A DNA stretch of 64,000 nt from Squalus acanthias. Lineage: Eukaryota. The notes beneath the pieces are model-generated. The model ran no database searches and was not told the DNA's origin. It saw only the letters and a program-made list of their open reading frames with translations. Of the stretch, positions 12,495-63,775 are shown piece after piece. The stretch lies in contig CM059432.1 in the NCBI GenBank assembly GCA_030390025.1, forward strand, positions 61,320,001 to 61,384,000. The letters run 5' to 3'. Position 1 is the first letter of the stretch. Each line of letters starts with the position of its first letter. A program made the translations under genes and the position numbers.

Positions 12495-12912
12495 TAGAAA
12501 CATAGAATCTAGGAGCAGGAGTAGGCCATTCGGCCCGTCGAGCCTGCTTCGCCATTCAATACGATCATGGCTGATCATCCAAATCCAGTACCCTGTCCCT
12601 GCTTTAATCCCCACAGTACACATATCCCACCCTACCCCCGTAACCCCACGTATTTAATTCCCCCTAACATATCCCATCCTATCCCCATAACCCCACATAT
12701 TTAATCCCCCCTAACACTAAGGGTCAATTTATCATAGCCAAATCAACCTAACCCACACATTTTTGGACTGTGGGAGGAAACCGGAGCACCCGGGAGGAAA
12801 CCCACGCAGACACGGGGAGAATGTGCAAACTCCACACAGACAGTCACCTGAGGTCAGATTCGAACCCGGGTCTCTGGCGCTGTGAGGCACCAGTGCTAAC
12901 CACTATGCCACC
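12495..12912 (-). mobile_element. tRNA-derived SINE (HE1/V-SINE-like) with CR1 3' tail
   Basis: A box TGGCATAGTGG, B box GGTTCGAATC, core GTGGAGTTTGCACATTCTCCCCGTGTCTGCGTGGGTTTCC; tail matches local CR1 3' ends; inserted in the Penelope GIY-YIG domain. Confidence 0.88.
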
Positions 12913-15856
12913 GTATACTAAATTGCAGGAAGTACAAGTAAATCGCTGTTTCACCTGGAAGGGGTGTTTGGGGCCCTGGACAGTGGAAAGGGGGGAGGTA
13001 TAAGGGCATGTGTTACATCTCCTGCGCTTGCACGGGAAGGTGCCGGGCAAAGGGGAAGGGGTGCTAGGGATGGTAGAGGAGTGGACTAGGGTGTCGTGGA
13101 GGGAGCGGTCCCTGCGGAATGCTGAAAGGGGAGGTGAGGGGAAGATGCGTTTGGTGGTGGGATCACGCTGGAGGTGGCGGAAATGGTGGAGGATGATCCG
13201 CTGAATGTGGAGGCTGGTGGGGTGAAAGGTGAGGACAAGGGGAACTCTATCGTGGTTCCGGGAGGGAGGGGCAGGGGTGAGGGCGGAAGTGCGGGAGATA
13301 GAATGGACACGGTCGCGGGCCGTGTCAACCACAGTAGAGGGGAATCCTCGGTTGAGGAAAAAGGAAGACATGTCGGAAGCACTGGTATGGAAGGTGGCAT
13401 CGTCAGAGCAGATGCGGCGGAGACGGAGAAACTGGGAGAATGGAATAGAGTCCTTACAGGAGGCGGGGTGGGAGGAAGTGTAGTCCAGGTAGCTGTGGGA
13501 GTCAGTGGGCTTGTAGTGAATATTTGTCAATAACCTATCCCCAGAGATGGAGACGGAGAAGTCGAGGAAAGGAAGGGAAGAGTCGGAGATGGACCATGTG
13601 AAGGTGAGGGAAGGGTGGAAATTGGAAGCATAGTGAATGAAATTTTCTAGTTCAGGGCGAGAGCAGGAGACAGCACCGATACAGTTATCAATGTACCGGA
13701 AAAAGAGGTGAGGGAGGGGACCAGAGTAGGACTGGAACAAAGAGTGTTCCACATATCCCACGAAAAGGCAGGCATAGCTAGGACCCATGCGGGTACCCAT
13801 AGCAACACCTTTGATTTGGAGGAAATGAGTGGAGTCAAAGGAGAAGTTGTTCAATGTGAGAACAAGTTCAGCCAGGCGGAGGAGGGTGGTGGTGGATGGG
13901 GACTGGTTGGGCCTCTGTTCAAGGAAGAAGCGGAGCGCCCTCAGGCCATCCTGGTGGGGGATGGAGGTGTAGAGGGATTGTACGTCCAGTGAAAAGGAGG
14001 CGGTTGGGGCCAGGAAACTGTTAAAGTGGCGGAGGGCGTCGGAAGAGTCGCGGATGTAGGTGGAAAGAGACTGGACAAGGGGAGAAAAAATAGAGTTGAG
14101 ATAGGAAGAGATAAGTTCAGTGGGGCAAGAACAGGCTGAAACGATGGGTCTACCAGGGCAGTCCTGTTTGTGGATCTTGGGAAGGAGGTAGAAACGGGCT
14201 GTGCGGGGTTGAGGAACTATGAGGTTGGCGGCCGTGGGGGGGGAAGATCTCCAGAGGAGATGAGGTCAGTGACAGTCTTGGATACGGTGGCTTGATGTTC
14301 GGTAGTGGGGTCATGGTCCAGGTGGAGGTAGGAGGAGGTGTCGGAGAGTTGGCGTTCAGTTTCCGCTAGGTACCTTTTTAGAAGTTGGAGCCTGATTACA
14401 TCATTTGGATCCCAATGCGATTTTTACCCCAGGTCGCACAAGTCATGCACAGTGCTGGACCCCCCAGTAAAACCTGACAGCAGGCAGGATCGGGGCCAGA
14501 AGAGGTCCAGTTGAGTTACAATATTTCCGTTAATGTGGGTCCCGGGGGGGCAGCGGGTGAGGTGGGTGAAGAACAGAAGTCCTCCTCCAAGCTCCACAAG
14601 AAAACCATGGGCCTCTGGACCCCCCTTCACCACCTACCTTATGCCAGTGACCGTTCACCTGGGTTCCCGGCAGCGGCCTCTTGCCCGCTTCTGCCCTCCA
14701 AGCACCTCATCATTTCCACCTAGCGCGGGCGGGTGTGCTTCCTCCTACATGGTAATGAAGCCCGGTAGTTACAATTGTCCGAGCCACATGCTGGCGCCAT
14801 CATGGGTACTTCCTGCCTGCCCTAGCCTCCACATGCATGGAGATAAAAATCGGTGCTTTAGAAACTAAGTAGTATTGTCCCACTTTTAAAAAACAATCCA
14901 ATAGTTATTTTATAATTGGATATGAAAAGGTAGGTCAAAAGAGAAAAATTGGTTAACATCAACCACAATCAAGAAGTTAGAAGAGGTCCAATTTGAAGAC
15001 ATTGAGGACGGATCAGATGAATATGGTTTAGTACATGGAACAAATAACCAGACATCTCTGTACAGGGACAATGGTAAAAATGAAATGCAGCTGGTTGGAG
15101 ATTTCTTTGATTAATGCCATTTTGCGCATTAGACTAATTTGCCTATAATAAATATTTCAATAAAAGTACAAGGGAAAATAAGCACTCCAATATCTCTAAC
15201 ATCTAGGCATTAACTAGTCTACAATCTACAAGAAGTATAATTTAAAATCTAACACTTGGAATGAGTTAGGCAAGATAAAAAGTCTCTCAATTTTAACAGT
15301 ATTGCAAAGTAGAACTTGCTGAAATTAAAGATAGAATGATTTTTGACAACAATCTTATAGGACTCAGTTCCATTTCCATACCCAAGATGGTGGCAGATTT
15401 TCATTGTCATGCTCTTCATGATTTTGTAGTAGCGACCTCATGTATTTTCTAATCACCAGTTCACTGTTGCACAATAGCCCGAGCTAAATCTCACCTGTTT
15501 CTTCACTACAGCTTCTGCCCTTTTACGAACTCAACTTCACAGATAATAATAGAGCTAGGTTTGTGGATGGATGGACAACTAAAAGGTTTGACCCCCATCT
15601 CCTTCCTGGCAGAATTTTTGTGCAGTGTATACTTTGAAACAACTTTGCATTTCAGATTAACACCTTAGCTTTTATTAAACAAACTGGCTAACAAAGACAG
15701 GGCATATTCTGCATGGCAAGTAAAGCTGAGACTGCGGTATGATATTATTCACATCAGTTTACAAAAGAACTTCAAGTTTTATATTTTTTATACACTGTGG
15801 TTTTCTTTATTAAAACTGTGATCCATTAAGTTGACCAAGGACATAGTTAAAAAAAA

Positions 15857-17408: not shown

Positions 17409-19615
17409 GGACCAACAGTAGCATAGTGGTTATGTTATTGGACTAATAATCCAGAAGCCTAGACTAATGATCTGGAGATGTGAGTTCAAATCCCACCACA
17501 GCAACTGGGGAATTTAAATTCAGTTAATTAAATAAATCAGGAATAAAAAACTTGTATCAGTAATGGCAACCATAAATCGATCGGATTGTCGTAAAAACCC
17601 CATCTGGTTCACTAATGCCCTTTAGGGAAGGAAATCTGCCGTCCTTACCTGGTCTGGTCTATATGTGACTCCAAACCCACAGTAAAGTGGTTGACTCTTA
17701 ACTGCCCTCTGAAATGGCCTAGCAAACCACTAGCAGTTGTAAAAAAACGCTATGAAAAACAATAAGAATGAAACGGGACCGACCACCGGCACCGACTACG
17801 GACCCGGCACACCCAGCCCAGTCGCCCACTCCTCACTAACACCTCACTTGTGCCCATGAAGTCTCATGGGCAAGGAAACCTCCTGCTGATTACCATCCCT
17901 CTGCTGATGAATCAGTACTTAGAAGGAGATCTACCATCCTTACCTGGTCTGATCTATATTAACTCCAGACACTCACCAATCTACCTGTCGCAGATGCATC
18001 TGTCCATGACAGCACTGGTAGTAGTGACCACCGCACAGTCACTGCGGAGACGAAGACCCGTCTTCTCACTGAGGACACTCTCCATCGTGTTGTGTGGCAC
18101 TACCACCGTGATATCAAGAAACGGCTGAGCGTACTGGATACAGCAAAGGCTGTGGGCCCCGACAACATCCCAGCTGTTGTGCTGAAGACTTGTGCTCCAG
18201 AAACAGCTATAACACTGGCATCTATCCAACAATATAGAAAACTGCCCAGGTATGTCTGTCCACAAAAAGCAGGACAAATCCAATCCAGCCAATTACCACC
18301 CCATCTGTCTAATCTCAATCATCAGCAAAGTGATGGAAGGTGTTGTCGACAGTGCTATCAAGCAGCACTTACTCACCAATAACCTACTCACTGATGCCCA
18401 GTTTGGGTTCCGCTGAGACCACTCAGCTCCAGGCCTCTTTACAGCTTTGGTCCAAAAGAGGTGAGGGGAGTGACTGCCCTTGACATCAAGGCAGCATTTG
18501 ACCGAGCGTGGCATCGAGGAACCCTAGTAAAACTGAAGTCAATGAGAATCAGGCGGAAAACTCTCCACTGGCTGGAGTCATACCTAGCACAAAGGAAGAT
18601 GGTTGTGCTCGTTGGAGGTCAATCACCACAGCCCCAGGAGTTCCTCAGGGCAGTGTCCTAGGCCCAACCATCTTCAGCTGCTTCATCAATGACCTTCCCT
18701 CCATCATAAGGTCAGAAGTGGAGATGTTCGCTGATGACTGCACAGTGTTCAGTGCCATTCGCAACTTTTCAGAAAATGAAGCAGTCCATGCCCACATGCA
18801 GCAAGACCTGGATGACATTCAGGCTTGGGCTGATAAGTGGCAGGTAACATTCGCACCACACAAGTGCCAGGCAATGACTATCTCCAACAAGCTAACCACC
18901 GCCCCTTGACATTCAACGGCATTACCATCGCCGAATCCCCCACCATCAATATCATGGGGGTCACCATTGACCAGAAACTGAACTGGACCAGCCACATAAA
19001 TACTGTGGCAACTAGAGCAGGTCAGAGGCTGGGTATTCTGCAGCAAGTGTCTCACCTCCTGACTCCCCAAAGCCTTTCCACCATCCACAAGTCAGGAGTG
19101 TGATGGGATACTCTCTACTTGCCTGGATGAGTGCAGCTCCAACAACACTCAAGAAGCTCGACACCATCCAAGACAAAGCAGCCCGCTTGATTGGCACCCC
19201 CTCCACCAGCTTAAACATTCACGCCATCCACCACCGGCGTACCATGGCTGCAGTGTGTACCGTCTACAAGATGCACTGCAGCAACTCGCCAAGGCTTCTT
19301 CGGCAGCACCTCCCAAACCCGCGACCTCTACCACCTAGAAGGACAAGGGCAACAGGCGCATGGGACCACCACCACCTCCAAATTCCCCTCCAAGTCACAC
19401 ACCATCCTGACTTGGAAGTATATCGCTGTTCTTTCATCATAGCTGGGTCAAAATCCTGGAACTCCCTCCCTAACAGCACTGTGGGAGTACCTTCACCACA
19501 AGGACTGCAGCGGTTCAAGAGGCCAGCTCACCACCACCTTCTCAAGGGCAACTAGGGATGGGCAATAAATGCTGGCCTTGCCAGCAACACCCACATCCCA
19601 TGAACAAATTTTTAA
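17409..19615 (+). mobile_element. tRNA-headed CR1-group LINE, internally deleted copy
   Basis: A box TAGCATAGTGG 17419-17429, B box GAGTTCAAATCC 17482-17493, then endonuclease and RT remnants ([15 protein letters not shown]); homologous to 50478-53741. Confidence 0.88.
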
Positions 19616-25950: not shown

Positions 25951-26261
25951 CACAGAATCCCCACAGTGCAGATAGAGGCCATTTCGGCCCATCGAGCCTG
26001 CACCGACACATATCCCACCCTATCCCCGTAACCCCACGTATTTAATCCCCGTAACACTAAGGGTCAATTTATCATAGCCAAATCAACCTAACCTGCACAT
26101 CTTTGGACTGTGGGAGGAAACCAGAGCACCCGGAGGAAACCCACGCAGACACGGGGAGAATGTGCAAACTCCACACAGACAGTCACCCGAGGCCAGATTT
26201 GAACCCGGGTCCCTGGCGCTGTGAGGCAACAGTGCTAACCACTATGCCACCGTGTTGCCAC
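25951..26261 (-). mobile_element. tRNA-derived SINE (HE1/V-SINE-like)
   Basis: Same head and core as 12495-12912; TSD TTATTTT at 25944-25950 and 26262-26268; sits in an L2-type tail remnant. Confidence 0.9.
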
Positions 26262-49909: not shown

Positions 49910-50477
49910 TATAAAGCATCTTGGTTATCAAAATAGGCTAAAAGAGTTGAGACTCTACATATAGAGAAGCATAGACTTGGGGTGAACTGATTGAGGTTTG
50001 TAAGATAATGCAGGGAATAGATTGTGTTCCAGTTGACAGTTTGCTCCAATTAAATAGGTTAGGGAGGACCAGGGGTCACAATTGTAAGTTGTATAAGGCC
50101 AGATCTAGGTTAGATGTCAGGAGGTAGTTCTTTTCCCAGAGAATAGTGAACCTCCAGAATAGGCTGCTGTCTTGTGCAGTGGATGGCGATTTGCTGAATT
50201 ACTTCAAGCGAGAGCTGGACCTGTTTCTGGCTGGGGCGGACATCACCTCTTACAAAACGTAGGTAGTTCACGCAATTCAGGGCCAGAGTGATCTCCTGGA
50301 TTAGTTTCGATAGCCTAGATGGGTCGGAGAGGAATTTCCCAGATTTTTTTCCCCCAAATTGACCAGGGTTTTTACCTGGTTTTTCTCCTTTCCCAGGAGA
50401 TCACATGGTTTTCAGTGGGTGGAGAGTGTATATATTGTGATACACATGGTATCACAATTGTGTGGGAAAGGCTGGAT

Positions 50478-53400
50478 TTTGTTTTATTCATTCATGGGAT
50501 GTGGGCGACGCTGGCAAGGCCAGCATTTATTGCCCATTCCTAGTTGCCCTTGAGAAAGTGGTGGTGAACCACCTTCTTGAACTGCTGCAGTCCGTGTGGT
50601 GAAGGCACTCCCACAGTGCTGTTAGGTAGGGAGTTCCAGGATTTTGACCCGGCGACAATGAAGGAACGACCATATACTTTCAAGTCAGGATGGTGTGTGA
50701 CTTGGAGGAGAACTTGGAGGTGGTGGTGTTCCCATGCGCCTGCTGCCCTTGTCCTTCTAGGTAATAGAGATCGCGGGTTTGGGAGGAGCTGTCCGAGAAG
50801 CCTTGGCGAGTTGCTGCAGTGTATTTTGTAGATGGTACACACTGCAGCCACGGTACACCGGTGGTGGAGGGAGTGAATGTTTATGGTGGTGGATGGGGTG
50901 CCAATCAAGCGGGTTGCTTTGTCTTGGATGGTGTCGAGCTTCTTGAGTGTTGTTGGAGCTGCACTCATCCAGGCAAGTGGAGAGTATTCCATCACACTCC
51001 TGACTTGTGCCTTGTAGATGGTGGAAAGGCTTTGGGGAGTCAGGAGGTGAGACACTCGCCGCAGAATACCCAGCCTCTCCTTTATGTGGCTGGCCCAGTT
51101 AGGTTTCTGGTCAATGGTGACCCCCAGGATATTGATGGTGGGGGATTCGGCGATGGTAATACCATTGAATGTCAAGGGGCGGTGGTTAGGCGCTCGCTTG
51201 TTGGAGATAGTCATTGCCTGGTACTTGTGTGGCGCGAATGTTACCTGCCACTTATCAGCCCAAACCTGAATGTCGTCCAGGTCTTGCTGCATGCGGGTAT
51301 GGACTGCTTTATTATCTGAGGAGTTGCGAATGGCAATGAACTCTGTGCAGTCATCAGTGAACATCCCCACTTCTGACCTTATGATGGAGGGAAGGTCATT
51401 GATGAAGCAGCTGAAGATGGTTGGGCCTAGGACATTACCCTGAGGAACTCCTGCAGCGATGTCCTGGGGCTGTGATGACTGACCTCCAACCAGCACAACC
51501 TTTGTGCCAGGTATGACTCCAGCCAGTGGAGAGTTTTCCCCCTGATTCCCATTGACTTCCGTTTTACTGGGGCTCCTTGATGCCACACTTGGTCAAATGC
51601 TGCCTTGATGTCAAGGGCAGTCACTCTCACCTCACCTCTGGAATTCAGCTCTTTTGTCCATATTTGGACCAAGGCTGTAATGAGGTCTGGAGCCGAGTGG
51701 TCCTGGCGGAACCCAAACTGGGCATCAGTGAGCAGGTTATTGGTGAGTAAGTGCTGCTTGAGAGCACTGTCAACGACACCTTCCATCACTTTGCTGGTGA
51801 TTGAGAGTAGACTGATGGGGCGGTAATTGGCCGGATTGGAATTGTCCTGCTTTTTGTGGACAGGACATACCCGGGCAGTTTTCCACATTATCGGATAGAT
51901 GCCAGTGTTATAGCTGTACTGGAACAGCTTGGCTAGTGGCGCGGCTAGTTCTGGAGCACATATCTTCAGTACGACAGCCGGGATGTTTTCGGGGGCCACA
52001 GCCTTTGCTGTATCCAGTGTGCTCCGCTATTTCTTGATATCATGTAGAGTGAATCGAATTGGCCGAAGACTGGCTTCTGTGGTGGTGGGGACCTCAGGAA
52101 GAGGCCGATATGGATCATCCACTCGGCACTTCTGGCTGAAGATGGTTGCAAACGTGTCAGCTTTGTCTTTTACACTCACGTGCTGGATCCACCATCATTG
52201 AGGATGGGGATATTCATGGAGCCTCCTCCTCCCGTTAGTTGCTTAATGGTCCACCACCATTCATGACTGGATGTGGCAGGACTGCAGAGCTTTGATCTGA
52301 TCCGTTGATTGTGGGATCACTTAGCTCTGTCTATAGCATGCTGCTTCCGCTTTTTAGCATGCATGTAGTCCTGTGTTGCAGGTTCCCCAGGTTCTCACCG
52401 CATTTTTAGGTACGTCTGGTGCTGCTACTGGCATGCTCTTCTACACCCCTTATTGAAACAGGGTTGGTCCCCTGGCTTGATGGTAATGGTAGAGTGAAGG
52501 ATATACTCAACCATGAGGTTACAGATTGTGGTGGAATACAATTTTGCTGCTGCTGATGGCCCACAGTGCCTCATGGATGCCCAGTTTTGAGCTCCTACAT
52601 CTGTTCTGAATCTATCCCATTTGGCATGGTGGTAGTGCCACACAGCACGATGGAGGGTGTCCTCAGTGTGAAGATGGGACTTCGTCTCCACAATGACTGT
52701 GTGGTGGTCACTGCTACCAATGCCATCATGGACAGATGCATCTGTGAGAGGTAGAGGTCAAGTAGGTTTTTCCCTCGTGTTGGTTCTCTCACCACCTGTC
52801 GCAGGCCCAGACTGGCAGCTATGTCCTTCAGGACTTGGCTAGCTCGGTCAGTAGTGGTGCTACCAAGCCACTCTTGGTGATGGACATTGAAGTCCCCCAC
52901 CCAGAGTACATTCTGTGCCCTTGCTACTCTCAGTGCTTCTTCCAAGTGGTGTTCAACATGGAGGAATACTGATTCATCAGCTGAGGAAGGGTGGTAGGTG
53001 GTAATCAGCAGGAGGTTTCCTTGCCCATGCTTGACCTGAAGCCATGAGACTTCATGGGGTCCGGAATCAATGTTGAGGACTCCCAGGGCCACTCCTTCCC
53101 AACTGTATACCACTGTGCCACCACCCCTGGTGGGCCTGTCCTGCCGGTGGGACAGTACATACCATGGGATGGTGATGGAGGAGTCTGGGACATTGATTCT
53201 GTGAGTATAATTATGTCAGGCTGTTGCTTGACTGGTCTGTGGGACAGCGCTCCCAATTTTGGTACAAGTCCCCAGATGTTGGTGAGGAGGACTTTGCAGG
53301 GTCGACTGGTCTGGGTGTGCCGTTGTCATGTCTGTAGCCGGTGCCGAGGTCGATGCCAGGTGGTCCATCCAGTTTTATTCTTATTATTGTTATTGTTTTT

Positions 53401-53741
53401 CGTAGCGGTTTTTTACAACTGAGTGGCTTGCTAGGCCATTTCAGAGGGCAGTTAAGAGTCAACCACAATGCTGTGGGTCTGGAGTCACATATGGGCCAGA
53501 CCAGGTAAGGATGGCAGATTTCCTTTCCTAAAGGACATTAGTGAACCAGATGGGTTTTTACGACAATCCGATAGTTTCATGGTCACCATTACTGATACTA
53601 GCTTTTTATTCCAGATTCATTTAATTAACTGAATTTAAATTCCCCAGGTACCGTGGTGGGATTTGAACTCACATCTCCGGATCATTAGACCAGGCTTCTG
53701 GATTATTAGTCTAATAACATAACCACTATGCAACCGTTCCC
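50478..53741 (-). mobile_element. Full-length tRNA-headed LINE: one APE-endonuclease + RT ORF, no ORF1
   Basis: A box 53723-53733, B box 53659-53670; VLLTNIWGL...PDIIILTES, VGDFNVHH, NYRPISLLS, LDIKAAFD, GVPQG, MFTDD, stop at 50540; TSD GGAT at 50474-50477 and 53742-53745; several frameshifts. Confidence 0.9.
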
Positions 53742-53889: not shown

Positions 53890-54770
53890 TGAGCCATTTT
53901 CCTTGCCATTTGAGCCAAACCTGGTCCAGTTAAGCTTCTGGTAATGGTGAACCTCAAGATGTTGATGGTGCGGGACACAGAGATGATGGTGCCGTTGAAA
54001 GTTGGGGGAGATGGTTGGGCTTTTTTGCCAGGAACTTACGCGGCAAGAACATTAGCTGCCATCTGCCGGCCAAACCTGGATGTTATTCAACATCCTGGAT
54101 ATGAATGGAGCTGAATCATCAGTGAACAGCTCCAATCTTGACCTTGTGACAACGGAAAGTTCATTGATAAAGCAGCTAAAGATGGTTGGGCCTTGTATGC
54201 TTTCCTGAGGAACCCCTTCAGCAATATCTTGGGGTTGTAATGATTGGGCTCTGATAACCACAACCATTGTTTTATTTGTTCTTGGGCAATGCTTGCAAAT
54301 CAGCATTTATAATGAATCATGTGGCATGGGACTATATTCACCTGTAGGCCAGGCCAGTTAGGGTGATAGGTTCCCTTCCCTGAAGGTCATTAGTGAACCA
54401 GTTGGGCTTTTATGAGAATCCAGCAGCATTCATGGTCATTTATTTGGTGCCAGTTCACAAATTGAATTCAATTTCACAACTTGCCATTGTGGGAGTTGAT
54501 CTTGCATCTGGATTATTAGCCTAGTACCATAAACCACGACACTACCATATCCCTGTCATCTTCCTGTGTGTCAGGTATGAGTCCAGCCACTGGAGGGTTT
54601 TCCATCTGAAGCCTATTGACAGTTTTGCTAGGGCTCCTTGGTGTCATAATTGATCAAATGCTGGCTTGACATCAAGGGCTACTGCCCTCATCTCTCTGGC
54701 ATTCATCTCTTGCATTCATGTCTGGATTAAGGTTGTAATGAGGTCTGGAGCCAAGTGGTACTGGCACTGT
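53890..54770 (-). mobile_element. Older fragment of the same LINE family containing a SINE with the related tRNA head (~54300-54553)
   Basis: GVPQESIQGPTIFSCFIN remnant; the insert shares ATTAGTGAACCAG and CTGGATTATTAG with the LINE head. Confidence 0.7.
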
Positions 54771-55990: not shown

Positions 55991-57130
55991 ATTATCAGCC
56001 CCTGTGTTATCCCAGTTATCTTTTGCTACTACAGGAAAATACATGTAGCATGATTGGTAGCTGCAAAGAAGACCAGTATACCTGAACCTGTTCTCTGAAT
56101 CAGAGTAAGTTCTACATGCGTATGACGGAAAAGAAGCCTTGTTGGTGCCCAATTTTCTTTCTTTATTCCTCTTCTCCAGTCGGTTATGACTCATGCTGGA
56201 GTACAGTTCCATGGACACCAACCATCCTCAGGTACTTTGCCGAATTAGCTATTCTTCATCTATAAACTTGAATAATGAAGCCTTGATTTTCTGTGGTAGC
56301 ACAACCACCGTGTGGTGGGGCAGCGCATTGCTGACTCCACCATAGTTTCTGGGATCAGCTTAATTGGAATAATCAGTGCAAGCTCCAGGCATTGGAAATG
56401 CCTCTCAATGGGTGTTTATTTGTTTTGGGAACAGAGTGTTAAGCTGTGAGTTTGGTGAGTGAGGGAGTGAATCTTAAAGGTTAATCACTTTTTTTTAATA
56501 TAAAATCTAGTCTTGTGTGCTTGCAATTAGCATTTAACTTACATTTAAATTTACTGTTTCAAGTTTTAAGTTTCTTCCAGGCTTGGGCAGGGCTAAGCAA
56601 GCTCTGTGCTGGAGAGCAGGTGAGAGTAATTAATTAATTAACTGGTCTAATCTGGTTCTGTAACTGCCAGAGAGCTCACTTATTTAAATCTCAGCCGTAT
56701 AAATAATGGAGGCTAGAGTGCAGTTTGTCACGGAGTGCAGCTCGGAACAGAGTGTTAAGCTGCGAGTTTGGTGAGTGAAGGAGTTCGGGGAGGGAGGTGT
56801 TCCTTTCTTTTTTCTATCTTTGTCAGCTTCCAGGAGAGCAGGAGCTAAAAAGCTGCACAAGAGGGGACAGAGAACCAGCGGGAGTTCGACTCTGTGACAC
56901 CCCCCAACCGCATCTGGAGAAAAATAAAAAGTGACATCACAGGGAAAAGGGTAAGTGATTGGTTGGTGAGTATTTTGCTCACTTCCCTTATCTTTTAAAG
57001 CCCAGGAAATTTATTAGTAATTGTAAGGTTTCATTAGTACTAGTTTACTTGCAGTAATAAATCTTATTAGGTGGATTAGGGTTTGTTAATTATTAATTAA
57101 TAAAAATAAATTAATTAAGACTCCATAAAG

Positions 57131-58081
57131 ATGGCAGGGCAGGTGATGTGTTGTGACTGCAGTATGTGGGAGCTCCTGGATGCCAGTGTGATCCAGGACG
57201 AACACGTCTGCGGTAAGTGTCTGTGGCTTGAGGAGCTTCGGATCAGAGTTGATGAGCTGGAGGCCGAGCTGCAGACTCTGCGATGCATCAGGGAGGGGGA
57301 AAGTTACCTGGACACTTTATTCCAGGAGGCAGTCACACCCCTTAGGATAGGGTCTTCTGATTTGGTCAGTGGTCAGGGACACGAGGATGTGACTGCGAGT
57401 GAGGCAGGTATGGGGACCCAGGAGGTGAAGGAGCCTCAGCCTTTGCAATTGTCGAACAGGGTTGAGGTTCTTGCAGCCTGTATGGATGAAAGCGGTGGCT
57501 GCAGGGTGGATGAGCAAACTGACCATGGCACCGAGGTACAGGAAGCCATTCAAGCAGGGGGAGTTAATAGGAATGTAGTGGTAATTGGGGACAGCACAGT
57601 CAGGGGGATAGATACAGTTCTCTGCGGCCAAGAACGAGAGTCCAGAGGGCTGTGTTGCCTGCCTGGCGCCAGGTTTCAGGACATCTGCTCTGGGCTGGAG
57701 AGAAACTTGCAATGGGAGGGGGAGGTGCCAGTGGTCGTGGTCCACGTAGGTACCAACGACATAGGTAGAACTAGGAAAGAGGTTCTGCTGAGACAGTATG
57801 AGCACCTAGGGGCTAAATTAAGAAGCAGAACGTCAAGCGTAATAATGTCTGCATTATTACCTGAGCCACGAGCAAATTGGCATAGGGTAAATAAAATTAG
57901 AGAGATGAATGCGTGGCTCAAAGACTGGTGTGGGAGAAATGGGTTTCAGTTCCTGGGGCACTGGCACCAGTACTGGGGAAAGTGGGATCTGTATCGTTGG
58001 GACGGTCTTCACCTGAACCGTGCTGGGACCAGTGTTCTGGCAAGTCATATAACTAGGGCGGTAGAGAGGGCTTTAAACTAA
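57131..58081 (+). CDS. CR1 ORF1p: zinc finger, coiled coil and SGNH esterase (316 aa, open)
   Basis: CCDC...CGKC, LEELRIRVDELEAEL, VIGDS, HVGTND, DGLHLN motifs. Confidence 0.88.
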   Translation: MAGQVMCCDCSMWELLDASVIQDEHVCGKCLWLEELRIRVDELEAELQTLRCIREGESYLDTLFQEAVTPLRIGSSDLVSGQGHEDVTASEAGMGTQEVKEPQPLQLSNRVEVLAACMDESGGCRVDEQTDHGTEVQEAIQAGGVNRNVVVIGDSTVRGIDTVLCGQERESRGLCCLPGARFQDICSGLERNLQWEGEVPVVVVHVGTNDIGRTRKEVLLRQYEHLGAKLRSRTSSVIMSALLPEPRANWHRVNKIREMNAWLKDWCGRNGFQFLGHWHQYWGKWDLYRWDGLHLNRAGTSVLASHITRAVERALN

Positions 58082-58092
58082 ATATTGGGGGC

Positions 58093-61064
58093 ATGGGATC
58101 AAATTTGGGAAGATGTGGTAATTCAAAGATTAGAGACAAGGCAATAGAGAAAGGTATTAATATGGGAAATGATAAACAGACCATGACAGGAAGGGATAGA
58201 GAGTACAAATCTAAGAGTAAATCAATAGATAAGGCTAGAGGTTACAAAAATAATAAAAGGACAAAACTAAAGGTTCTGAATCTGAATGCACGTTGCATTC
58301 GAAACAAAATAGATGAACTGATAGCACAAATAGAAATAAATAAATATGGTCTGATAGCCATTACAGAGACATAGCTGCAGGATGACAAAGATTGGGACCT
58401 GAATATTGAAGGGTACATGACATTTAGGAAGGACAGGAAGGTGGGAAAAGGTGGAGGGGTGGCTCTGTTAATTAATGATGGTATTAGCACAATAGAGAGG
58501 GATGACCTAAGTTCAGGAAACCAGGATGTAGAAGCGGTTTGGGTAGAGATGAGAAATAATAAAGGTAAGAAGTCACTTGTGGGAGTGGTGTACAGGCCCC
58601 CTAACAGTAACCACATGGTAGGATGGAGTATAAAGGAAGAAATAATGGGAGCTTGTCAGAAGGGTACGGCAATAATCATGGGGGATTTTAATCTGCATAT
58701 AGACTGGAAAAATCAGATGGGCAAAGGTAGCCTAGATGAAGAGTTCATGGAATGTTTTCGGGATAGTTTCTTACAACAGCACATTCTGGAGCCAACCAGT
58801 GAGCAGGCTATACTAGACCTGGTATTGTGCAACGAGATAGGATTAATTAATGACCTCATAGTGAAGGCGCCCCTAGGTAGCAGCGATCATAATATGATTG
58901 AATTTTACATTCAGTTTGAGGGAGAGAAGAGTGGGTCCAAGACTAGTATTTTAAACTTAAATAAGGGCAATTATGAGGGCATGAAAGCAGAGCTAGCTAA
59001 AGTGAACTGGCAAATTAGGTTAAGGGATAGGTCAATAGAGTTGCAGTGGCAGACATTTAAAAGGATATTTCAAAATACACAGAATATATACATTCCAACA
59101 AGAAAGAAAAATTCCAAGGGGAGGACCCACCATCTGTGGTTAACTAAAAAAGTTAAAGATAGTATTAAACTTAAAGAAAAAGCATATAATTGCGCAAAGA
59201 TGGGTGGCAGGTCAGAAGATTGGACAGAATATAAAAAACAGCAAAGAATGACTAAAAGATTAATGAGGAGAGAAAAATTAGAGTACGAGAGAAAGCTAGC
59301 TAGAAATATAAAATCAGATAGTAAGAGTTTCTATTGATATTTAAAAAAGAAAAGAGTTAACAAAGTGAGCGTTAGTCCTATAAAAAGTGAGTCTGGGGAA
59401 TTAATAATGGAAAATAAGGAGATGGCAGTTGAATTGAACAGGTATTTTGCATCGGTCTTCACTATAGAGGATACAAGTAACATCCCAGAAATAGCTGTAA
59501 ATCAGGAAATGGAAGGGAGGGAGGAACTCAAGAAAATTATAATCACCAGGGAAGTGGTACTGAGCAAATTGTTGGAGCTGCGGGCTGACAAGTCCCCGGG
59601 TCCTGATGGACTTCATCCTAGGGTCTTAAAAGAAGTGTCCAGTGAGATAGTTGATGCATTGGTTTTAATTTTCCAAAATTCCCTAGATTCGGGGAAGGTT
59701 CCATTAGATTGGAAAATAGCGAATATAACTCCTTTATTCAAAAAGGGAGGGAGACAGAAAGCAGGAAACTACAGGCCAGTTAGCTTAACGTCTGTCATAG
59801 GGAAGATGTTGAAAGCTATTATTAAAGACGTTATAGCAGGGCATTTAGAAAAGTTCAAAGTAATCAGGCAGAGTCAACATGGTTTTGTGCAAGGGAAATC
59901 ATGTTTAACCAATTTATTGGAGTTCCTTGAGGAAGTAACATGTGCTGTGTATAAAGGTGAACTGGTGGGTGTACTGTACTTAGATTTCCAGAAGGCATTT
60001 GATAAGGTGCCACATCAAAGGTTATTGCGGAAAATAAAAGCTCATGGTGTAGGGGGTAACATATTGGCATGGATAGAAGATTGGCTAGCTAACAGGAAAC
60101 AGAGAGTAGGCATAAATGGGTCATTTTCTGATTGGCAAGATGTAACGAGTGGTGTGTCACAGGGATCAGTGCTGGGGCCTCAACTTTTTACAATTTATAT
60201 AAATGACTTGGATGAAGGGTCCGAAGGTATGGTTGCTAAATTTGCTGTTGACACAAAGATAGGTAGGAAAGTAAATTGTGAAGAGGACATAAGGAGGCTA
60301 CAAAGGGATATAGATAGGTTAAGTGAGTGGGCAAAGATCTGGCAGATGGAGTATAACGTGGGAAAATGTGAAATTGTCCATTTTGGCAGGAAGAATAAGA
60401 AAGAAGCATATTATCTAAATGGTGAGAGATTGCAGAGCTCTGAGATGCAGAGGGATCTGGGTGTCCTAGTGCATGAATCACAAAAGGTTACTATGCAGGT
60501 ACAGCAAGTAATTAGGAAAGCTAATAGAATGTTATCATTTATTGCGAGGGGAATTGAATACCTAAAAGTAGGGAGGTTATGCTTCAGTTGTACAGGGCAT
60601 TGGTGAGACCACATCTGGAGTACTGTGTACAGTATTGGTCTCCTTATTTAAGGAAGGATGTAAATGCGTTGGAGGCAGTTCAGAGAAGGTTTACTAGACT
60701 AATACCTGGAATGGGCGGGTTGTCTTATGAGGAAAGGTTGGACAGGCTAGGCTTGTATCCGCTGCAGTTTAGAAGAATAAGAGGATACTTGATTGAAACA
60801 TATAAGATCCTGAGGGGTCTGGACAGGGTGGATGTGGAGGGGACGTTTCCTCCTGTGGGAGAATCTAGAACTAGGGGTCACTGTTTAAAAATAAGGGGAC
60901 GCCCATTTAAGACAGAGATGAGGAGAAATATTTTCTCACAGAGGGTCATGAGTCTTTGGAACTCTCTTCCTCAGAGGACGGTGGAAGCAGAGTCTTTGAA
61001 TATTTTTAAGGCAGAGGTAGATAGATTCTTGGTAAGCAAGGGGGTGAAAAGTTATTGGGGGTAG
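58093..61064 (+). pseudogene. CR1 ORF2 (APE endonuclease + reverse transcriptase), disrupted
   Basis: AITET, VYRPP, GDFN, SDH; RT motif FADD is changed to FAVD; two stops and one frameshift. Confidence 0.9.
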
Positions 61065-61484
61065 GTGGGAATGTGGAGTAATCAGATCAGCCATGATCTT
61101 ATTGAATGGCAGAGCAGGCTCGAAGGGCCGAGTGGCCTACTCCTGCTCCTACTTCGTATGTTCGTATGTATGTTCATATGTAAAATAGCACATAGGTATA
61201 GGTTTGAAAGACTTCCGGCAGATCAAAGAGCCACAACAGAAAACATAGTTTTGGATGCAGCAAAAAAAAAACTGATTCGAAAAATGTCAGAGAGGAGTGC
61301 TGATAAGTCGAGACCCTCACCTTTGTGGATACAAGTGAAAAAAGTGTGGCTTCAGGAGACCAAATATAAAAAGGAGGCCCTCTTTGCAACTGACAAAAGG
61401 AGGGCCCCAAGGAGAGCTACAGCATAGAAGTGGAAGGAGATAGCCTGGGCAGTCAATGACATGTCTTCCATTCAGCACATGACT

Positions 61485-62795: not shown

Positions 62796-63775
62796 CTCAA
62801 TTAAATTGGCTGAAGACTGGTATCTGTGAAGGTGGGGACCTCAGGAGGAAGCCGAGAAGGATCATCTACTCGGTACTTCTGGCTGAAGATAGTTGCAAAC
62901 GTTTCAGCCTTGTCTTTTGCATTCACGTGCTGGGCTTCGCCATCATTGAGGATGGGGATATTCATGGCGCCTCCTCCTCCTGTTTGTTGCTTAATTGTCC
63001 ACCACCATTCATGACTGGATATGGCAGGACTGCAGAGCTTTCACCTGATCTGTTGGTTGTGGGATTGCTTAGCTATGTCTATAGTATGCTGCTTCCACTG
63101 TTTAGCATGCATGTGGTCATTCCTACCAATACTGTCATAGGCAGGTGCATCTGCGACAGCTAGATTGATGAGGATGAGGTCAAGTAGGTTATTCCCTCAT
63201 GTTGGCTCTCTCACCTCAAGCCCAGTCTCGTAGCTATGTCTTTTAGGATTCGACCAGCTCGGTCAGTAGTGGTACTATCAAGTCACTTTTGGTGATGGAC
63301 ATTGAAGTCCCCCACCTCGAGCATATTCTGTGCCCTGGCTACCCTCAGTGCTTCCCCCAAGTGGTGCTCAACATGGAGAAGTACTGATTTATCAGCTGAG
63401 GAGGGCAGTAGGCGGTATGTTTGGCCTGAAGCCATGAGACTTCATAGGGTCTGGAGTCAATGTTGAAGACTCCCAGGGCCACTCCCAGCCGACTATATAC
63501 CACTGTGCCCCACCTTTGGTGAGTATGTCCTGCCGGTGGGATGGGAAATATCTTGGGATGGTGACGGAGGAGTCTGGGATGTTGGCTAATAGGTATGATT
63601 CTGTATGACTATATGTCAGGCTGTTGTCTGACTAGTCAGTAGGACAGCTCTCCCAACTTTGGCACTAGTCCCCAGATGTTAGTGAGGAGGACTTTGTAGG
63701 ATCAATTGGGCTGGGTCTGCCTTCATTGTTACCGATACCTAGGTCGCAGCAGAGTGGTCCGTACAGATTTATTCT
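62796..63775 (-). mobile_element. Endonuclease-region fragment of the tRNA-headed LINE family
   Basis: Colinear with 52055-53380, with an internal deletion. Confidence 0.85.

Follow-up and report, generated by a model that had tools for sequence, protein, structure and literature searches.

A tRNA-headed LINE lineage of Squalus acanthias avoids TT on its coding strand and may be transcribed by RNA polymerase III

Introduction

Could RNA polymerase III (Pol III) transcribe a protein-coding retroposon from a tRNA-like head? The question is raised by a LINE found in a 64,000-nt stretch of the Squalus acanthias genome (the window), whose preliminary description had proposed that the lack of runs of four or more T (T4) on its sense strand reflects selection for Pol III read-through. 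By definition, SINEs belong to Pol III and do not code for protein, and LINEs belong to Pol II and do (PMC5786205, PMC4494074), and the available text of PMC5786205 states that SINEs are unable to encode protein and treats LINEs as Pol II-transcribed. If the proposal were true, a Pol III-driven coding element would break the SINE/LINE division, and a natural long Pol III message would be translated without a cap or an AUG. No description of a tRNA-headed coding LINE was found in a literature search that stopped short of Repbase, Dfam and subscription papers.

Results

Anatomy of the headed LINE

The features of the element and of its relatives in the window are collected in Table 1. In the full-length copy the endonuclease (APE) starts at about 53292 and the catalytic motif of the reverse transcriptase (RT) lies at about 51361; this copy is disrupted by indels near 53389, 53193, 52753, 52184, 51500 and 51080, and by stops. 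A search of the 3.7-Gb genome gave 39,015 candidate places, 40 of which were scored, and a majority consensus of 30 copies (family A) was built. This consensus is 3.3 kb long, has a T content of 19.6%, and consists of the head, a leader of ~240 nt with the TAA at position 333, a 973-codon ORF and a tail of 60 nt that includes a short A-run; no ORF1 was present in it. The copies of family A are dispersed and 5′-truncated and have a common 3′ end, and no obvious target-site duplications were seen by eye in 11 full-length copies.

Table 1. Positions in the window of the headed LINE copies and their parts
Feature	Position	Strand	Remark
Full-length decayed family A copy	50477..53741	-	93.3% identity to family consensus; sense-strand T4 = 0
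tRNA-like head	53654..53741	-	read from sequence; A box, B box and CCA
Head A box	53733-53723	-	sequence
Head anticodon-like arm, doubled	53714-53697 and 53693-53676	-	sequence
Head B box	53670-53660	-	sequence
Head CCA	53656-53654	-	sequence
Conserved leader body, closing with in-frame TAA (53415-53413)	53413..53653	-	common to family B and SINE derivatives; distinct from the Deu domain
17-codon upstream ORF, both families	53485..53538	-	weak lead, post hoc
N-terminal arm, A-rich then Arg-rich, in the endonuclease frame, without ATG	53293..53412	-	ACG candidate at codon 4
Single ORF (family: 973 codons)	50540..53412	-	Pfam PF14529, PF03372, PF00078
3′ tail: AATAAA (50531-50526) and short A-run	50477..50539	-	common to SINE derivatives
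Second family A copy, headed, internal deletion, one private T4 at 18766	17414..19612	+	
Fragment of same lineage, 5′ ORF part, sense T4 = 0	62796..63775	-	
RT fragment of older headed family B, sense T4 = 0	53921..54765	-	split by B-type SINE (~54270-54553)

When the head was scored as a tRNA in Rfam, using a younger copy, it reached 19 bits (E=0.23), under the cut-off of 29, and ARAGORN at default settings found no tRNA in the window. With relaxed ARAGORN the anticodon is read differently in families A and B. In both families the head has a poorly paired acceptor stem together with intact A and B boxes. Part of a young copy is present in the assembled contigs of 23 of the 24 runs listed, which come from 8 studies and 9 coded organisms. 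Leader and endonuclease are found together on one listed contig in two of the four runs examined (X10, 411-880; X5, 473-744), and SINE-type joints occur in the contigs of three of the four.

Two rearrangements were seen along the way. In the second copy a piece of the leader has been duplicated into the place where the endonuclease region is deleted (window 17925-17975, +), probably by a template switch. In two other loci (L281 and L282; G000:C53 and G000:C3445) headed family A copies pass, beyond the RT and with the frame kept, into an endonuclease segment of CR1; the junction, which lies amid simple repeats, is identical in both, so that they are probably one duplicated event.

An older family carries the same architecture

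The decayed piece at 53921-54765 has diagnostic changes in common with other old copies. The queries L087 and L189 returned mostly young copies, and searches with its own head and with a motif led to the older family (family B). A query with the SINE inserted in this piece gave 10 loci, and in two of these a single-arm tRNA head continues into the ORF. The motif, from the N terminus of the ORF, matched 24 places, versus none for the reversed control; 19 of these loci were analysed, three of the rest being already in the sample and two omitted. The resulting family B consensus, which has a depth of 3-21 copies per position, about 75 nt uncovered near the 3′ end and eroded CpG sites, is 87.6% identical to family A, with the same leader, the same ORF and a single-arm head; its T content is 20.0%, with T4=0 and five T3. 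Outside CpG, the differences between A and B comprise 165 synonymous and 126 nonsynonymous changes. These comparisons give good support to a headed autonomous LINE lineage that spans at least two generations. The B-type SINE (single-arm head, leader, short tail) sits in the RT region of the old family B LINE, at window 54270-54553 (-).

Head, leader, ORF and tail form one inherited unit

Among the best 29 other matches to the head, 26 continue into the ORF, two skip to the tail (the SINE form) and one ends early; these matches were chosen by likeness to the head of the 50477..53741 copy and give no LINE:SINE ratio. The alignment runs from head to tail in one piece in 11 of 18 extended loci, and of 52 alignments with their start in the leader, 32 have it at consensus positions 4-6 (a head-selected sample). 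The 5′ ends fall on the first base of the tRNA part, the A and B boxes are conserved across both families, and 34 of the tallied copies that cover the head have an identical B-box word. Every headed copy has the same junction of the head with the rest of the element, and this junction is in frame-register in families A and B alike.

Variants in the head are linked to variants in the ORF up to 3 kb away (P<0.05 in 35 of 64 site pairs), the best linkage (P=0.0008) extending across 2 kb. Against 1965 possible synonymous and 5997 possible nonsynonymous changes, the shared variants, found in 12% or more of the copies, comprise 50 synonymous and 32 nonsynonymous ones (ratio about 0.21), versus 505 and 1685 among singletons (ratio about 1.09). 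This linkage, together with the contrast between shared and singleton variants, indicates that the source elements were both coding and headed. As judged from the copies compared, we have shown that the element inserts and evolves as a single unit made of head, leader, ORF and tail, and that purifying selection maintained the ORF in master copies that had the head attached.

The head, body and tail of the SINEs all match the LINE minus its middle, and the SINE-to-tail junctions vary between and within families A and B. This pattern fits SINEs that arise repeatedly through internal deletion of the LINE, a direction that we infer. It would offer a direct route to SINEs, in which head, body and tail come from a single parent by deletion. 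If, moreover, the leader drives cap-independent translation of the LINE, the SINE body would be a ribosome-recruiting element that has been kept. This would provide a testable explanation for the conservation of SINE bodies, and the function of the conserved body would become open to a test with a simple leader-reporter.

T-runs are scarce on the coding strand

We then recounted the T-runs on which the preliminary description was based. Over 50490-53741, as described, the sense (minus) strand carries no run of four or more T and the antisense strand carries 20 (roughly 20 had been given), and the 62796-63775 fragment is likewise free of sense T4. The plus-strand copy, there placed at 17409, does contain exactly one sense T4, at 18766; its attribution to post-insertion decay holds, TTTT being found at this site in none of the 132 other copies that cover it. 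Neighbouring CR1 sense strands are indeed rich in such runs, with 13, 8, 3, 5 and 12 in the five stretches counted. The contrast of 0 versus 20 between strands partly reflects an A>T skew of the sense strand. One of the CR1 elements of the window (57119-61170, +) is near-complete and young, has a GDSL-esterase ORF1, has other copies 95-96% identical to it, and served as a control.

As its first refuting condition the preliminary description had named a T4 depletion that is not significant after correction for composition; when codons or dinucleotides were preserved, the depletion was indeed not significant (P 0.1-0.4). With zero T4 observed in family A, 3.9 were expected from mononucleotide shuffles (P=0.022), 1.4 from dinucleotide shuffles (P=0.20) and 1.9 from synonymous-codon shuffles (P=0.11). 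CpG-stratified codon shuffles gave expectations of 1.1 (A, P=0.28) and 0.8 (B, P=0.41), with none observed in either family, and in a simulation the preservation of T4=0 across the 357 A-B differences had P=0.24 or 0.38. Since strict nulls absorb the very effects that selection against T-runs would make, and since codon usage cannot fix TT across a codon boundary, TT at codon junctions was tested. In the CpG-stratified test, junction TT was observed 9 times versus 17.9 expected in family A (P=0.001) and 7 times versus 16.8 in family B (P=0.001), and T3 5 times versus 9.3 (A) and 4 times versus 8.2 (B) (P=0.02), A and B, at 87.6% identity, not being independent tests. No depletion of TA, AA or A4 was found in the CpG-controlled test of A and B. 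An unstratified junction test (9 versus 25) was inflated by CpG loss, and the stratified test was used instead. Zero T4 by itself is therefore a weak signal, and the avoidance of TT at codon junctions is the stronger one. As a separate observation, CpG at codon junctions is strongly depleted in the ORFs of families A and B (28 versus 82 in A), far more so than in the Tx1-type ORF (155 versus 166).

The same test was applied to other LINEs. The host CR1 ORF2 consensus (30 copies) has 49 junction TT versus 51.5 expected and 13 T4, and one host Tx1-type ORF (T=20.8%, 3.9 kb) has 51 versus 43.3 and nine T4. From related metagenome loci 80 were taken, of which three had no usable ORF and 77 were scored; their headless status was judged by the B-box pattern (2 of 77 match), relaxed ARAGORN, BLAST and, for 11 of them, Rfam. 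In these relatives, which are distant (23-42% identity), mostly richer in T and in many cases 5′-incomplete, the nearest homologues (45-50%) being absent from the DNA comparison, 1214 T4 were observed versus 1158 expected, and the junction-TT ratio had a median of 1.01 and a minimum of 0.77. The comparison with relatives that lack the head, also proposed in advance, sets the headed LINE apart from these distant ones, with a ratio of 0.6 or less in 0 of the 77. A Poisson fit of the T4 rate on T content in the relatives predicts 6.8 T4 for family A (P0=0.001), an extrapolated value, T being <24.5% in only six relatives; two short low-T relatives (1.1 and 1.2 kb) also have T4=0. The closest relative with DNA (L091) carries in its 5′ UTR (320-480) two similar repeats of ~55 nt, has no tRNA head, and gave no Rfam match for these repeats at E<=0.05.

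Taken over these comparisons, TT and T3 were shown to be avoided on the coding strand as read from the two consensuses, in which T4 is absent. Of the earlier idea of selection against T-runs, the avoidance itself stands, being real and absent from host CR1, host Tx1 and the 77 distant relatives; the bare T4 count, on which it had been built, does not carry it. The avoidance also exceeds the strict need of Pol III, which calls for the avoidance of T4 only, a host Deu-type SINE having several T3. Pol III transcripts of a B2 construct are terminated at TTTT in about 65% of cases and at TTT in few (PMC8466645).

Several other traces of Pol III termination were sought. Like tRNA-derived SINEs, the element has no internal Pol III terminator, T4 being zero in consensuses A and B. 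No subfamily variant creates a T4, the commonest new T4 site occurring in 5 of 117 copies; this tally is of low power and was not counted as evidence. The low Phe content (1.93%; minimum of 120 homologues, 2.1%) was rejected as a sign of T avoidance, lying only ~1.3 residual SD below the GC-linked trend. A copied terminator at the 3′ end was rejected too: T4 or longer precedes the A-run in 28 of 133 tails, and the background is equal. The T-run before the A tail that marks T+ SINEs was found in 19 of 77 tails versus 55 of 189 in a matched background (P=0.55). Next to A5+ runs in loci of the same genome, a T-run followed by an A-run was seen 127 times versus 20 in reverse order, of 3359; this excess is a genome-wide decay pattern of A tails.

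The reading frame opens without an AUG

The first in-frame ATG is found at codon 287 in family A and at codon 232 in family B, beyond the endonuclease, and the reading frame opens directly past the leader TAA in both. Within the first 38 codons an Arg-rich pattern is kept through synonymous swaps, with CGG replaced by AGG or AGA at four Arg codons and further swaps at Lys, Pro and His, and in 28 of 44 copies the net indel length in the N-terminal arm is divisible by three. The Arg pattern kept by synonymous swaps and the lack of an in-frame ATG before the endonuclease make it probable that the arm is translated and that initiation uses a non-AUG codon, one of the first few. A candidate start is the ACG at codon 4, present in 34 of 49 copies in a tally of codons 3-4, the remainder having mostly its CpG-decay product. 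In the 17-codon uORF, six of the eight changes between A and B are synonymous (a post hoc count by hand); as the uORF is common to both leaders, reinitiation is possible. No IRES or ribozyme match was obtained for the leader in Rfam, folding of the two leader sequences (A and B) gave differing structures with no reliable compensatory pairs, and, by a rough hand estimate, the A-box region pairs with the start of the ORF no more than chance would allow. In the available text of PMC3894237, IGR-IRES-like, non-AUG initiation in non-LTR elements is raised merely as a possibility.

Relation to known retroposons

ZfL2-2 and RTE are single-ORF APE-RT LINEs without ORF1. The headed LINE resembles such elements, as described in the available part of PMC3894237, in its one APE+RT ORF, conserved 3′ tail, frequent 5′ truncation and tail-sharing SINEs, and differs from them in its A/B-box 5′ end, the lack of an in-frame AUG before the endonuclease and the TT avoidance of its sense strand. 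As in other APE-type LINEs, APE and RT lie in one ORF under purifying selection. In a tree of 38 RT proteins it forms a lone branch among marine relatives, one cluster of which includes sponge proteins, outside the host CR1 branch (100/99), and it is unlike CR1 in having no ORF1, whereas the host CR1 has a GDSL ORF1. A scan found no relatives in viral contigs.

With tRNA-derived SINEs (SINE2) the element shares a tRNA head with A/B boxes, a body, a LINE-type tail and the lack of internal T4; however, it is 3.3 kb long and protein-coding under purifying selection, not short and non-coding. SINEs that join a tRNA head to a LINE tail, among them bipartite-LINE SINEs such as Bov-tA and WALLSI2, and SINE bodies derived from the 5′ ends of RTE and Vingi, are described in the available text of PMC5786205; in contrast to such SINEs, those of the headed LINE could be made by one deletion, with no need to fuse a head. 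SacSINE1 and the Deu-SINEs with an L2-2_CM-type tail (PMC5499810, in the part available) are, like the headed LINE, tRNA-headed retroposons of cartilaginous fishes. The label SacSINE1/Deu was nevertheless rejected for the headed LINE: the SacSINE1 head, published in the supplement of PMC5786205, matches another SINE of the genome, which gave no alignment with the family A leader and is alike to family B only over ~22 nt around the B box. Head, body and tail all differ, and the headed LINE is a separate element. An elephant-shark pair, SINEX-1_CM and CR1-2_CM, is tabulated in PMC3747384.

R2 is translated as an uncapped or non-AUG message. R2 and the dicistrovirus IGR IRES (available part of PMC3894237) provide a functional analogy, protein being made from an uncapped or non-AUG message, but the headed LINE has an APE instead of a restriction-like endonuclease, dispersed insertion and no Rfam IRES or ribozyme match.

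Discussion

The features described above give good support to a real tRNA-headed autonomous LINE lineage, apparently AUG-less and with a specific avoidance of TT, and they make its transcription by Pol III likely. We consider it rather probable that this is a Pol III-transcribed, autonomous single-ORF LINE with a tRNA-derived type 2 internal promoter. In such an element TFIIIC would bind the A and B boxes of the head, and Pol III would start at the first G of the head and read the entire 3.3 kb; oligo-T terminators and their one-step precursors would be selected against, which would allow read-through. Translation of the uncapped RNA would begin at a non-AUG codon that lies a few codons past the leader TAA, and the conserved leader might aid translation, either by direct ribosome recruitment or by reinitiation after the 17-codon uORF. 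The endonuclease-RT would then copy its own RNA from the 3′ tail by target-primed reverse transcription, a step of established LINE biology. The fuller version, a long-lived, self-sufficient coding "SINE-LINE" lineage with an uncapped 3.3-kb Pol III RNA, leader-driven, cap-independent non-AUG translation and SINEs made repeatedly by a single internal deletion, is put forward more tentatively, as a possibility that the sequences would accommodate.

A different reading, which we regard as unlikely, is that the 5′ end of a SINE was captured as the 5′ UTR of a capped Pol II LINE RNA. The A/B boxes would then serve to insulate or to open chromatin, or Pol III would make short RNAs only, and the T-poverty would come from the avoidance of U-rich decay, cleavage or immune-sensing motifs, or from a lineage base bias. 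That T4=0 falls within the codon- and dinucleotide-preserving expectation, that the depletion is TT-wide with no sharp threshold at T4, and that characterised LINEs are all described as Pol II-type in the available text of PMC5786205 would suit such an origin; yet host CR1 and Tx1, in the same cell, have no TT avoidance, the 5′ ends fall on the first base of the tRNA with boxes conserved across two families, an AATAAA inside the first 140 nt of both families is awkward for a Pol II RNA, and a capped RNA would face several upstream ATGs and no in-frame start. The interpretation given in the preliminary description is supported in part: the head is inherited with the ORF and the avoidance persists in the headed family B, but TT avoidance has other possible causes.

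It is considerably less probable that the element has no promoter of its own and is co-transcribed from host Pol II units, the head being an RNase P-type processing signal that sets the 5′ end. Ribozymes at the 5′ end occur in LINEs (available text of PMC5786205). An uncapped processed RNA would also suit the precise 5′ ends and the AUG-less ORF, and self-cleaving ribozymes set the 5′ end in R2 and some RTE elements. Processing, however, leaves the TT avoidance unexplained, and the badly paired acceptor stem of the head, with its intact A/B boxes, is the opposite of what RNase P needs. The last alternative, that headed long copies are recurrent chimeras made by RT template switches onto an abundant SINE while the master LINE has an ordinary 5′ end, could appeal to the SINEs with the same head and to local rearrangements such as that at 17925-17975, but it is largely refuted, and very improbable, given a junction that is the same wherever a head is present and keeps frame-register in both families, head variants that follow ORF subfamilies, SINE junctions that differ between and within families, and the old motif-picked copies, of which 7 of 19 extend into the tRNA part, with no alternative 5′ region common to the 10 short ones that were compared.

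Other elements were encountered during the analysis. At window 12847-14265 (-) there is an open frame of 473 codons with a weak RT match (E=0.0003), which is distinct from the CR1s and from the headed LINE and has a partial repeat at 26006-26253. Elsewhere in the genome a GC-rich LINE (L283, G000:C379:50800-55300, and several PF00078 matches) has intact ORFs of 1306 codons; we take it to be Tx1-type from the look of its protein. Its copies occur in pairs about 7.2 kb apart on C4 and C11, a spacing that suggests tandem or target-specific arrays.
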